Assembly: GCF_030384885.1 (NCBI RefSeq)
Contig: NZ_CP128614.1
Length of the DNA: 64,000 bases
Strand: one strand, 5' to 3'
Origin: Escherichia coli
GTDB lineage: Bacteria; Pseudomonadota; Gammaproteobacteria; Enterobacterales; Enterobacteriaceae
Shown: piece by piece, positions 44,201-50,200 of the stretch
How the letters are laid out: the number at the start of each line of letters is the position of its first letter
Position numbering within the stretch: position 1 is the first letter of the stretch
Made by a program: the position numbers

Positions 44201-47200
44201 CTTACCTCGGCTCGGCGCGGGATGCGCAGCACCCACCGACGTCCATCGTCGACGGTGGCGATCACGATCCTATAGTCGAGCCCAAGCTCATTGACAGTCA
44301 GCGGGCCATGGAGCTTGAGCCCATGTCGGGCTGCAAGTGCGTACAGTTGGGAGGTATCGGCGGTCGTGACTACGGTCATGATTCACTCCTGAGGGCTTGA
44401 CGGGTTTAGCCACCTAAATGTAACAGTCACGTCGGTTATATTCAATCCGGCACTGTTGCAAAGTTAGCGATGAGGCAGCCTTTTGTCTTATTCAAAGGCC
44501 TTACATTTCAAAAACTCTGCTTACCAGGCGCATTTCGCCCAGGGGATCACCATAATAAAATGCTGAGGCCTGGCCTTTGCGTAGTGCACGCATCACCTCA
44601 ATACCTTTGATGGTGGCGTAAGCCGTCTTCATGGATTTAAATCCCAGCGTGGCGTTGATTATCCGTTTCAGTTTGCCATGATCGCATTCAATCACGTTGT
44701 TCCGGTACTTAATCTGTCGGTGTTCAACGTCAGACGGGCACCGGCCTTCGCGTTTGAGCAGAGCAAGCGCGCGACCATAGGCGGGCGCTTTATCCGTGTT
44801 GATGAATCGCGGGATCTGCCACTTCTTCACGTTGTTGAGGATTTTACCCAGAAACCGGTATGCAGCTTTGCTGTTACGACGGGAGGAGAGATAAAAATCG
44901 ACAGTGCGGCCCCGGCTGTCGACGGCCCGGTACAGATACGCCCAGCGGCCATTGACCTTCACGTAGGTTTCATCCATGTGCCACGGGCAAAGATCGGAAG
45001 GGTTACGCCAGTACCAGCGCAGCCGTTTTTCCATTTCAGGCGCATAACGCTGAACCCAGCGGTAAATCGTGGAGTGATCGACATTCACTCCGCGTTCAGC
45101 CAGCATCTCCTGCAGCTCACGGTAACTGATGCCGTATTTGCAGTACCAGCGTACGGCCCACAGAATGATGTCACGCTGAAAATGCCGGCCTTTGAATGGG
45201 TTCATGTGCAGCTCCATCAGCAAAAGGGGATGATAAGTTTATCACCACCGACTATTTGCAACAGTGCCACGCAAAGACGTAATGAGCAGTGTATCCCCTG
45301 CCACAATACCCTCTTCAGGGATGCTGTCAGTGGACGTCCAGTACTGACCCGCCAGCAAAGAATGAAATCGCTCTAAACGGTCAATGCTATTTTTGCTGAC
45401 CAGGTCACCCATATACTTTTCCTTCCAGATTCGTGTGTTAGGTGAATCATACCAGATTGCCCTTGCCGTCTAATAACGCAGAAAACTGTGAATCCAAAAT
45501 TCCTTAAATTCAAACCTGTCCAATATAAAAGATGGCTCTTTTTCTTATCCAGTGTTAAGCGATAATGCTCAATTTTATTTCATTATTGTCAGAATCAAAA
45601 TAATCTGAAAATAAAAAAGGCTTCAGAATTGAAGCCTCTATATTATACAACGTGAATGTATTTTATTTATCTTTCACCGGGTTCATTTCCCAGTATCTTT
45701 CACGTACGTTTTCTTGGCAATGGTCCGCTCGCTCCGGCGTGTCCCTTTTACGAGTAGCAAATGCTTCAATTACGGCATTCAAGTCTTTTTCTTTGATTTT
45801 AGATCCAACAGGCAAGTTTTCTTCAAACTCAGTCCTTACCAGTTCTTTCGTTTTTTTATAATCGGTTTCACTTTGGATTTCAGGTTTTAAACAAATATCG
45901 GCAACCATCACATCTGATTTGCCCGGGATCGGTTTTTTCCCGTTTTCAGATGCAAGGACCGCAGAGGAGGTAAAGGCGACAGACAGAGTTGCACATAACA
46001 GAAGGTATTTTAATTTCATGACTCACTCCATGATTATCAATGATGGTTGCTCAGACACATCATTTATACCATGCCTGTCACCGAATACGAGATCCCCATA
46101 TTTTGGCTTTAAATATTATCCAATAGGGTTTCATACACCTGGCTTCTGAAAGCAAGGTTCAAGGAGCTTCAGGGGGAAATCAGATTGTTGTCGACCCAGT
46201 ACTTGTGCAAACCTACCACCCAATTCCTGGAAATGGACGAAAGTTCATGCGCCAGTTCACGACAGCATTCAGGCGTAAAAATACGTATGGGTCCTGAAGT
46301 ACCGATATCAACAGACATGATAAACTCCAGAATGTTGCCATGGCATAGGTTGTTTCTCAGCCTGACAATTTCTGCTTCAGGTGTTCTCCCGGCTGCTACC
46401 TTAACCAACATATCCTGCTCGGCTGGAAATGAAAGTAATTCTACCGGCACCCCTTCCTGCTTGGCCTTTCTCAGTAAGGCATTACTCATTACGGAGATAC
46501 CCTCCAAGTCCACCAGCTCAGGAGCTGCATGCTGATCGTTAACTGTTGGTTTCAGCATCAGCGACTTCAACGTAACCATGAGTGATGTTTCAATCCCGTT
46601 CAGGAAGCTCGTACAGGCCGGTATCCATAGTTCGTGATGCAACGCCTCGGTTGCTTGTTTAAAGAACCAGTCAATCACGGGGACAGTGTGATAATCATAA
46701 TAGTGATTTATCTCGCTGAATCTTGACATATAAGCATCGTACTCAGCCTGGTCTTCAGGAGATAAAAAATTTGGTGGGAGGGGCATCAGAATCCTTTCAT
46801 CCTAGCTTGTATACCTTCTTCGTAGGCCAGCTCGCCATTATCGGTAAAAGATGGTTTTTGGTGTTTGTGACAAAGCTTAATTTTTCGTCAGGCTCGATAG
46901 CGTTACCGGAGAGATTTGATCTTTTCTCTGTAACTCGCAATACTGTTTATACATACAGTATGAGAATTCGAGTGTAGCTATGTCTGTTATCCTTGAGCAC
47001 ATTAGCAACAAGCCTTACGAAATGGCACCTTTTTTCAGTGATTTACTGAGCTGTGGAGTGATGAGTCCGTGCGCCGGGCATGAAGATAATGAATTAAATT
47101 TGCATGAATATGTAGTCCGTAACCGCCCCTCAACCTTCTTTGTCAGGGCGGCGGGCCTCAGTATGATCAATGCCGGTATCAATGATGGCGCTATTCTGGT

Positions 47201-50200
47201 TGTGGATCGGTCTTTAACGGCACGACACGGCTCTATCGTCGTTGCGCTGGTGGATGGAGAGTTCACGGTAAAGATCTTACACACGTATCCTGAGCTGCTT
47301 TTGATGCCTTCTAATCCAGCCTATAAGCCGATACGTGTAAATCCCGAATCCCTTGAGATATGGGGCGTCGTCACCTTTGCACTGAATCAGTTTAGCCATG
47401 TACATGCACGTTGATATTAACGGGGCCTATGCGGCATTTGAGTGTGCGATGGATCCCAAGCTGGCAAAAAAGCCGCTCATCATAGCCAGCAATAACGATT
47501 CGTCCGTCATTGCAATGAATAAACTGGCTAAAAGCGTTGGTATTAAGCGTGGGACCCCAATTTTTAAGTGCAGGGATTTGATTCAGCAACACCAGATCGA
47601 AGTCCGGAGCTCTAACTTTACTTTGTATGAAGACTACTCAAATCGCTTCCATGAAACGCTGGAAAGCTTCGCGCCTCAATCGAGTCGATATAGCATAGAT
47701 GAAAATTTCATGTTATTGAAAAACATGAACAAGATAATAGATTATGAAGATTACGGCCGGTTGATCAGAAGTACACTTCTTCATAATCTGTCCCTTACCT
47801 GTGGTGTGGGGTGTTCAAGCACCAAAACCCTGGCTAAATTATGCACCTATGCGAGCAAACGATGGGCAGCTACAGGCGGGGTTGTAGTTTTGACTGATCA
47901 GGCCAGGATCAGGAAGCTCCTGGGCCTTATCAGTACCAGAGAAATATGGGGTATTGGTCAAAAGATCAGTGAACGCCTGTCGGCTTTCGGGATCATCACT
48001 GCCGGTGATTTTTATAATAGCGACGTTCGCTTTTTACGTAAAAGCTTTGGCGTTGAAATCGAGCGTACCTGGCGGGAACTGCATGGCGAACCATGTTTCC
48101 GGCTGCATGAATCCCCTCCTGTCCGGCAACAGATTATCGTTTCCAGAAGTTTTGGTCAGCGCCTTAATGAGATAGGCAAGCTACATGAGGCAGTTTCATT
48201 TTTTACCGCCCGGGCGGCAGAGCAGCTGCGCAAGGATGGCTCGTGGACCCGTCAAATCACAGTCTTCATTCAGAGCAGCAATTATGCGCAAGGTGAAAAC
48301 CGCTACAGCAATTGTGGTATCGAGCCGCTTACCGCTACACAGGACACCCGCGATCTGGTTGATGCAGCCATGACCATCCTGAACCGCATTTACAAACCCG
48401 GGATAGCGTATGCGAAAGCTGGGGTAATGCTCTCCGCTATGACTGACGGCACAGAGCAACTCAGCCTGTTTGATGAGCGCCCGGCCAGGCCTGGCAGTCA
48501 GGCACTGATGAAAGTTATGGACCGGTTCAATAAAGAAAAGCGCGGAGCTCTGTTTTTGCTGGGGGAAGGCATTCAACAGGATTTTCGTATGAAACAGGCC
48601 ATGCTATCACCGAGATATACGACCCGCTGGGATGAATTACTCGTTGTAAAAGCGTAGCGGCCATGACCGGCATGGCCGTACTCATCAAAAGTGAAAGTAA
48701 CTTTAGGCCCCGCGAGCTTTTTCGATTGCGCCCTGCAAAGTTGCTGCGTCCATAGCCCCGGGGATAAATGTGGTAGTCGCCGCATTCGGCTTTTTCATAT
48801 TCATAATGATGAAGCCGGGTGTGCCGGTGATCCCAAGCGCTTCGCCCAGCTGCATGTTGCCGGAGATCACGTTTTCATATCGGTTTTTTTCCCTGTCAGA
48901 AAACGTGCTGTTAAACCCTGACTTATCCACCACAGTATTAAAGTCGCTGAGTTCGAATTTGCGTTGAGAGGTCATGAAGGTATGAGCCACAGCCATCAGG
49001 TTGTTGTGGTATTTACGATAGGCTTCAGCACCGAAATTCTGATAGACGTGCAGACCCGTAGCGGCCCCCATGGCAGATACAGGTTTTGAACCGGCAAAAA
49101 TCGGGAATTCTTTAAAGAAGAATTTTACATCTTTGCTCTGATTCATTACCGATTCAACAACAGGTGTAACCCGCATGCAGTAAATACACTGATAGTCGAA
49201 GAACTCGATTACCGCGACGTCGGCGTCATCCGGGCCGATGTTTGGCGTCTCCTTGGTATCCAGCAGAGCTGGCGCATATGGAATTATTCGTTCCACTGAG
49301 GCACTTACGTTCTGATTTTCCAGCGCCTTACCTGCTTCCACTAAATAATGGGGATTTTTTACCAGGTAAGTAGCGGCAATTTTGCCAATTTCTTCCTCAC
49401 TGAGCACCTTCGGTTTAAAATAAGTTGCCGCGATTAACGCCGAGGCAGCGGTAGCAATTACCGCAGAAATTAAAATCGTGGCCATCGGTTTTAAATAAAA
49501 TTCTTTAGACATAGCTACCTTTATGCTTTTCAGCCTGTTAGTTATTAACCTGCGATGGATTATACTGGCCCGGTAAATCGGAATTATTCGTGAAACAATG
49601 CTTTTTGGAGATTAAAGGATGATTAGGCAGGGCTTTATACTCACAACCGCAATGCTTTTGAGTGGTTGTGGATATCATTTCGCAAACCAGGTAGATGCGT
49701 ACGATCTAATGCCTCGTCCTGTTACAAATAAAAGGTTTCAGATAGTCCCTCCGGACGAAAGTATTCAGTCCAGAATGTTTTCAGGCCGTTTTGCTGATGG
49801 ATTAGCAAAAAAAGGAGTCATTATTTCCACTCACCAGCCAGATTATGTGCTCAGGTTCCGAATGAGCAGCTCACAGGAGAACATGCAGTATAGCGAGCAG
49901 CTTCTTACTGGGGTGACAGGCTACGTTGTAGATAAAAAGACAACGAGAACTGACAAGCATGGCGAATCGCATACTGACTATGACTACAGGCCGGTCGATG
50001 GGGTAATAGGCACTGAGACGATGTCGCAGATGCACTATATGCGACAGCTGGATGTCGAGGTATACCCGTCAGCGAAAGGAGCAAAGCAGGTTCTGAAAGT
50101 GAGTATGCAAAGCAATGCACCTGTGCCGTCAGACAGCATTGCTTATTCAGCAATGATCGACGCCTTTACTGATAAATTTGATGCGCCGCTGCGTTCCGGA

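Follow-up and report, generated by a model that had tools for sequence, protein, structure and literature searches.

A probable LexA-repressed umuDC-type (mucAB) operon in the backbone of an IncHI2 conjugative resistance plasmid

We analysed a stretch of 64,000 nucleotides (nt) of the Escherichia coli contig NZ_CP128614.1 (assembly GCF_030384885.1), referred to below as the window, in which a preliminary description made from the sequence alone had pointed out two overlapping genes resembling the umuDC operon for an error-prone DNA polymerase. Our analysis indicates that this locus is very probably a umuDC-type (mucAB) operon from the backbone of an IncHI2 conjugative resistance plasmid, in which two genes repressed by LexA encode an orthologue of DNA polymerase V (pol V). 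As a sequence feature the operon is already known; it is annotated as umuD and umuC in public records, and it appears as mucAB in papers on R27 and on IncHI2 plasmids. Its parts are as follows, with plasmid p08-4425.1 (IncHI1B, R27 type) as the IncHI1 comparator here and throughout.

46916..46921, plus strand: putative -35 hexamer TTGATC of the umuDC promoter, inside the block ATTTGATCTTTTCTCT and invariant between IncHI2 and IncHI1
46939..46944, plus strand: putative -10 hexamer AATACT, 17 nt after the -35 hexamer and overlapped by the LexA box; GATACT in IncHI1
46941..46960, unstranded: LexA (SOS) box TACTGTTTATACATACAGTA, which matches the palindromic consensus TACTG(TA)5CAGTA at 18 of 20 positions
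46980..47414, plus strand: umuD-like gene (mucA in the IncHI literature), ATG start, 144 amino acids (AAs), S24 self-cleaving peptidase
47052-47057, 47160-47162 and 47271-47273: codons of the UmuD-like protein for Cys25-Gly26, Ser61 and Lys98, respectively
47398..48657, plus strand: umuC-like gene (mucB in the IncHI literature), ATG start, 419 AAs, catalytic subunit of a Y-family polymerase
47413-47415, plus strand: codon for Asp6 of the UmuC-like protein
48658..48678, unstranded: possible, weakly predicted terminator directly 3' of the umuC stop, an 8-bp G+C-rich hairpin with the sequence CGGCCATG-ACCGG-CATGGCCG

The operon, its products and its conservation

The umuD-like gene lies directly 5' of the umuC-like gene on the same strand. 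The listing of open reading frames (ORFs) places their 17-nt overlap at 47398-47414, with the TGA stop of the umuD-like gene (47412-47414) falling within codons 5-6 of umuC. Public records differ in the umuC start, and some of them use Met3 (47404), which shortens the overlap to 11 nt, in place of Met1 (47398); we favour Met1 because alignment with UmuC and MucB then places the catalytic Asp at position 6. A clear Shine-Dalgarno sequence is absent at both of these starts, which fits translation that is coupled to that of umuD. At the other end of the operon, the hairpin listed above sits between the convergent umuC and DsbA-family genes. Its fold z-score is only -1.0 (for an 81-nt stretch), and it was missed by a terminator scan because there is no T-run after it on the plus strand.

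The UmuD-like protein matches the Pfam family Peptidase_S24 (PF00717; E=2e-24, 86 bits against a cut-off of 23.3) and the NCBIfam model for the autoproteolytic subunit of pol V (NF007621; 129.8 bits, cut-off 110), and its best match among solved structures is E. coli UmuD (8gmt, E=1.3e-31). Its Cys25-Gly26, Ser61 and Lys98 align with Cys24-Gly25, Ser60 and Lys97 of the E. coli protein (8gmt/1umu), and G26, S61 and K98 are invariant across the 5 homologues in the UmuD-like alignment.

The UmuC-like protein has the Pfam domains IMS, IMS_C and DUF4113, and its residues 1-418 match positions 1-422 of the NCBIfam UmuC model (NF002955; 464.7 bits, cut-off 431). When it is aligned with the UmuC, MucB, IncL/M and IncHI1 homologues, Asp6, Asp101, Glu102, the steric-gate Tyr11 and the KTLAKL segment are all invariant, as are Q354, L355, L357 and F358 of the clamp motif QLSLF (residues 354-358). 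(In our comparisons the IncL/M and IncI1/B/O homologues stand in for R391 RumAB and TP110 ImpAB, which are themselves outside the set compared.) Assignment of this gene to the DinB/pol IV type was considered and rejected, with pol IV models giving 69-121 bits against cut-offs of 256-399. A sequence search of the PDB with the polymerase returned no structure of the UmuC family, the matches being only to pol IV, Dpo4, iota and kappa with E values of about 1e-12 to 1e-16.

The umuDC-like identity put forward in the preliminary description thus holds, since both subunits exceed curated hidden Markov model cut-offs and the polymerase is 47-48% identical to E. coli UmuC. The 17-nt overlap reported there agrees with the coordinates in the ORF listing, the Cys-Gly cleavage site and Ser-Lys dyad are those that align with E. 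coli UmuD (Cys25-Gly26 and Ser61/Lys98), and the umuC-like gene shows neither of the two kinds of damage that were to be looked for, a frameshift or the loss of a catalytic residue.

The first base of the LexA box lies 39 nt upstream of the umuD-like ATG. Sites of the form CTGT-N8-ACAG occur six times in the window where 0.74 are expected (0 of 100 shuffles gave six), and the longer pattern TACTGT-N8-ACAGTA, with at most one mismatch, is found four times where 0.04 are expected. The box is identical in a second IncHI2 lineage. In IncHI1 it is at the same place but has the sequence TACTGGTTAAATATCCAGTA, in which the CTG-N10-CAG core is kept, and the bases immediately flanking the 20-mer vary among IncHI lineages. 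The box had been described as a consensus one; it is indeed present, with a core that is conserved in the IncHI1 orthologue, but at 18 of 20 positions "near-consensus" is the correct term. The 193-nt intergenic region has diverged between IncHI2 and IncHI1, and the two elements that survive in it are the block ATTTGATCTTTTCTCT, which contains the putative -35 hexamer, and the LexA box. The putative -10 hexamer overlaps the box and would therefore fit repression by occlusion.

The IncHI1 plasmid carries the same genes in the same order: a divergent gene for a 205-AA hypothetical protein, umuD, umuC, a convergent DsbA-family gene and a lipoprotein gene. We conclude that the operon belongs to the backbone because IncHI1 plasmids carry these same flanking genes. 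The two proteins have equal lengths on both plasmids (144 and 419 AAs) and are 81% (UmuD) and 84% (UmuC) identical. At the DNA level identity is about 75%, and at third codon positions it is 47-50%. The proportion of synonymous sites that differ (pS) is 0.69-0.77, which is saturated, and the corresponding nonsynonymous proportion (pN) is about 0.10, giving pN/pS ratios of 0.15 for umuD and 0.13 for umuC (pN/pS is used in place of the corrected ratio dN/dS because the umuC pS value of >0.75 signifies saturation). Such low ratios across a divergence that has saturated synonymous sites indicate that the operon is under purifying selection.

The 2.2-kb region that contains the operon (2201 nt) is 100% identical to many large conjugative IncHI2 plasmids from Salmonella and E. 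coli, so the plasmid-borne location first assigned to it stands, the matches being to conjugative plasmids of the IncHI2/IncHI2A types. Two of the matching plasmid records were examined in detail and are typed as IncHI2A, MOBH and MPF_F. The region is found in 945 PLSDB plasmids, of which 899 have at least 80% of it and 934 are typed as conjugative; umuD/umuC is the annotation in those PLSDB records that we inspected. At least 1000 contigs encode exactly these proteins, for which the sources use such names as "Protein mucA" or "Error-prone, lesion bypass DNA polymerase V (UmuC)". Both proteins are also encoded, again in identical form, on a 5.3-Mb contig, which is consistent with a chromosomally integrated IncHI2 plasmid; such integrated plasmids have been described (PMC9019673).

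These genes have been mentioned in the literature several times. mucA/B was detected in 25 of 25 IncHI2 plasmids tested and grouped there with "stabilization" genes (PMC4855149), and umuC serves as a backbone landmark at the edge of the multidrug resistance region in IncHI2 plasmids (PMC9599605). In R27, mucA and mucB are listed as ultraviolet (UV) protection genes and were seen in the transcriptome, where their expression is independent of HtdA and of temperature (PMC7366339).

Proposed function and alternatives

The pol V pathway that is established for E. coli UmuDC, MucAB and RumAB suggests how the operon would work. In an undamaged cell the host LexA protein would bind at 46941-46960 and block transcription; DNA damage, or antibiotics that induce the SOS response, would generate RecA*, which would cause LexA to cleave itself and so allow the operon to be transcribed. 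Translation of umuC would be coupled to that of umuD through the 17-nt overlap. RecA* would also stimulate the UmuD-like protein to cut itself at Cys25-Gly26 by means of Ser61/Lys98, leaving a UmuD'-like fragment of 119 AAs. Two such fragments and one UmuC, joined by one RecA-ATP, should then form the active mutasome (UmuD'2-UmuC plus RecA-ATP), bound to the beta clamp through QLSLF. This complex would be expected to bypass lesions at low fidelity, and the damage tolerance so gained (the "UV protection" of the literature) would come at the cost of mutations.

Several observations weigh against so direct a transfer from the known systems. The NCBIfam scores of both subunits exceed their cut-offs by a modest margin only. 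The polymerases of the IncHI plasmids are 42-48% identical to UmuC, MucB, the ImpB-type protein and the IncL/M homologue, which share 50-63% identity with one another, so the IncHI pair is the outlier lineage of the set compared. A promoter scan of 46600-48900 called none upstream of umuD, as TTGATC-17-AATACT scores 8 of 12 where the threshold is 9; because the pair falls below that threshold, the promoter is assigned from conservation only. Codon 10 of the umuC-like gene (47425-47427) specifies Ala, next to the steric-gate Tyr11, in both IncHI2 and IncHI1; UmuC and the ImpB-type protein have Phe at this position, and MucB and the IncL/M homologue have Met. The change F10L in E. coli pol V raises fidelity and sugar selectivity and alters discrimination against ribonucleoside triphosphates (PMC3401427); with Ala at a position so sensitive, it would be unsafe to read the activity level and fidelity of the IncHI enzyme from UmuDC or MucAB. 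The literature that we found on IncHI mucAB/umuDC consists of annotation-level mentions, with no assay of LexA binding, UmuD cleavage, translesion synthesis or mutagenesis among them. Finally, pol V orthologues can be weakly mutagenic in their native context, an example being rumAB, which is a potent mutator when subcloned and a weak one when expressed from native R391 (PMC8460599).

This last point leads to the serious alternative. It holds that the operon is intact and SOS-regulated but adds little mutagenesis in its native plasmid, its benefit being damage tolerance (survival of the cell and replication of the plasmid) or a non-catalytic checkpoint role of uncleaved UmuD2C, and not a faster evolution of resistance. 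We regard this as a substantial possibility, although not the one we prefer. The behaviour of rumAB just described agrees with it, as does the "UV protection" label given to the R27 genes (PMC7366339), and the role of umu-like operons on plasmids has been said to remain "unclear" (PMC11541004). In addition, with a LexA box as strong as this one (18 of 20 positions, and two bases away from that of E. coli umuDC), repression should be tight and induction late. On the other hand, translesion synthesis by pol V is intrinsically error-prone, and in the established cases of UmuDC and MucAB tolerance and mutagenesis are normally coupled; even R391 in a wild-type host still increased mutagenesis by 31-38% (PMC9262582). 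The question concerns the phenotype and not the identity of the genes, and if this alternative is correct then the suggestion in the preliminary description that the operon may promote adaptive mutation under antibiotic stress was overstated.

A second alternative is that the operon serves establishment of the plasmid during conjugation, by helping to handle the incoming single-stranded DNA or by forming the edge of a leading-region anti-defence island, and not general SOS mutagenesis. We consider this very improbable. Umu-like operons are abundant in the leading regions of plasmids, where they frequently mark the terminal boundary of an anti-defence island, but 90.3% of them have an orientation that does not allow early transcription from the T-strand (PMC11541004). 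The operon does adjoin the transfer region (genes for a TraG N-terminal-domain protein, TrhH and thioredoxin-family proteins), and mucAB of IncN is located among the anti-restriction genes ardB, ardK and ardR; against this, the neighbouring genes of the IncHI2 operon match no Pfam, NCBIfam or PADLOC family (see below).

The data on selection and conservation effectively exclude a third alternative, in which the operon is a decaying remnant, functionally dead in spite of its ORFs, and its LexA-like palindrome is a relic or the product of chance: a few plasmids do have truncated or broken copies (one retains residues 1-166 only, and two match in three pieces) and the NCBIfam scores are near their cut-offs, but pN/pS is 0.13-0.15 over a divergence that saturated synonymous sites, every catalytic and processing residue is invariant, at least 80% of the region is retained in 899 of the 945 plasmids, and the core of the box is kept between IncHI1 and IncHI2 while adjacent bases vary, with a chance expectation of 0.04 per window.

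Surrounding genes and other LexA-like sites in the window

On its 3' side the operon is followed by the IncHI transfer region, which contains DsbA-family and thioredoxin-fold genes, an HNH endonuclease gene, a gene for a TraG N-terminal-domain protein and trhH. On the other side a 39-kb resistance island, cut into segments by six copies of IS26, occupies 6314-45268. The nearest neighbours of the operon and the features of the island are these.

45663-46019, minus strand: 118-AA ORF with a signal-like N-terminus, a conserved IncHI backbone gene
46169-46786, minus strand: 205-AA ORF, divergent from umuD, position kept in IncHI1
48703-49512, minus strand: DsbA-family gene, convergent with umuC
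49619-50230: 203-AA lipoprotein-like ORF, position kept in IncHI1
6314-7133, 10510-11329, 24753-25571, 29582-30401, 40076-40895 and 44449-45268: IS26 copies
7384-8259: blaCTX-M
11353-12156: aac(3)-IV
12385-13410: aph(4)-Ia
14529-16169: Tn3-family transposase fragment
18209-19072: sul2
21575-22789: floR
about 32.7-33.9 kb: mph(A)/mrx region (BLAST annotation)
36022-36948: sul1
37366-38157: aadA

The ORFs at 46169-46786, 45663-46019 and 49619-50230 have no family match in Pfam, NCBIfam or PADLOC. A gene for disulfide-bond formation lies convergent after umuC both on this plasmid (DsbA-family) and on the E. coli K-12 chromosome (dsbB); the parallel is probably a coincidence, as the protein families differ.

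The operon had been said to lie next to a large resistance island, and in position this is accurate, since the IS26-bounded island ends 1.7 kb upstream of umuD. We rejected the idea that the two are functionally linked: the gene order is the same in IncHI1, where this island is absent, and the island itself is an IS26 mosaic. The adjacency is an accident of the insertion site and is positional only.

Besides the box of the operon, the window contains five further CTGT-N8-ACAG sites, of which four are upstream of ORFs (three of these on mobile elements) and one is probably due to chance.

2470-2489: LexA-like box TACTGTATGTATGTACAGCA, 17 of 20 positions matching the consensus, intergenic, about 205 nt upstream of ORFs 2694-3155 and 3185-3592
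21148-21167: LexA box TACTGTGTTTACATACAGTC, upstream of the ISCR2/ISVsa3 transposase gene 19637-21130, minus strand
35634-35653: LexA box TACTGTGGTTATGTACAGTA, upstream of the ISCR1 orf513 gene 34076-35617, minus strand
39177-39196: box GACTGTACAAAAAAACAGTC, 10 nt before the intI1-like ORF 39207-40094
50121-50136: CTGT-N8-ACAG site inside the lipoprotein ORF 49619-50230, 10 of 20 positions matching the consensus, probably chance

The box at 39177-39196 is presumably the LexA box that has been published for the integrases of class 1 integrons. The intI1-like integrase behind it appears to be truncated, because its ORF runs into the IS26 copy that starts at 40076. The two ISCR boxes precede the start codons of their IS91-family transposase genes by 17-18 nt, and a 2025 bioRxiv preprint (10.1101/2025.11.21.689736) places the transposase genes of ISCR1, ISCR2 and ISCR8 under SOS/LexA control. 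The box at 2470-2489 possibly marks another SOS-controlled plasmid gene; neither of the two ORFs that follow it matches a family in Pfam, NCBIfam or PADLOC. About 650 plasmids carry the 1.5-kb region with at least 99% identity, and other IncHI2 lineages lack most of it.

Comparison with other pol V systems

The chromosomal umuDC operon of E. coli has the same gene order as the IncHI2 operon, and its proteins have the same Cys-Gly site, Ser/Lys dyad, D6/Y11/D101/E102 residues and QLxLF clamp motif, with identities of 47-48% for UmuC and 39-40% for UmuD. Its LexA box also starts 39 nt before the ATG and differs at 2 positions from the reverse complement of the IncHI2 box. Apart from its chromosomal location, it is set off by a 1-nt overlap of the two genes and by Phe10, where the plasmid-borne IncHI2 operon has a 17-nt overlap and Ala10.

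The mucAB operon of IncN plasmids (pKM101/R46 type; pol RI) is plasmid-borne like that of IncHI2 and its products have the same domain set, with 45-46% (MucB) and 46-49% (MucA) identity. Its genes overlap by 13 nt, and its LexA box is 35 nt before the ATG. The MucA cleavage site is Ala-Gly, unlike the Cys-Gly of the IncHI UmuD-like protein, and residue 10 of the polymerase is Met instead of Ala.

The umuDC homologue of IncL/M plasmids is also plasmid-borne, with 43-44% identity in the polymerase, 47-48% in the UmuD-like subunit and an Ala-Gly cleavage site; its LexA box, TACTGTATGTATAAACAGTT, is one base off the reverse complement of the IncHI2 box. The rumAB-type genes of R446b and R471a are said to have been cloned from this plasmid group, an attribution that goes by the title of the 1993 report of Ho et al. 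The impCAB-type operon of IncI1/B/O plasmids, likewise plasmid-borne and with an Ala-Gly cleavage site, encodes an ImpB-type protein with 43% identity (IncI1) and an ImpA-type protein with 35%, and in IncI1 it has a third, DinI-like gene upstream that is absent from the IncHI2 operon. The best match on a plasmid outside the IncHI group is to a Citrobacter plasmid, at 48-49% identity.

The IncHI pol V lineage rides on one of the main plasmid families that spread mcr, blaCTX-M and blaNDM. If its enzyme is active and mutagenic, a common resistance plasmid would be linked to antibiotic-induced mutagenesis, which would extend the biology of MucAB and RumAB and would come as no surprise. A bolder proposal, which we consider rather unlikely, is that pol V of IncHI1 and IncHI2 is a deep branch of enterobacterial pol V that could differ in fidelity, sugar selectivity or potency and that, by way of the globally spread IncHI2 plasmids carrying mcr or extended-spectrum beta-lactamase genes, could increase the rate of SOS-induced mutation in clinical hosts to a measurable extent, as has been reported for the Rum polymerase of SXT/R391.

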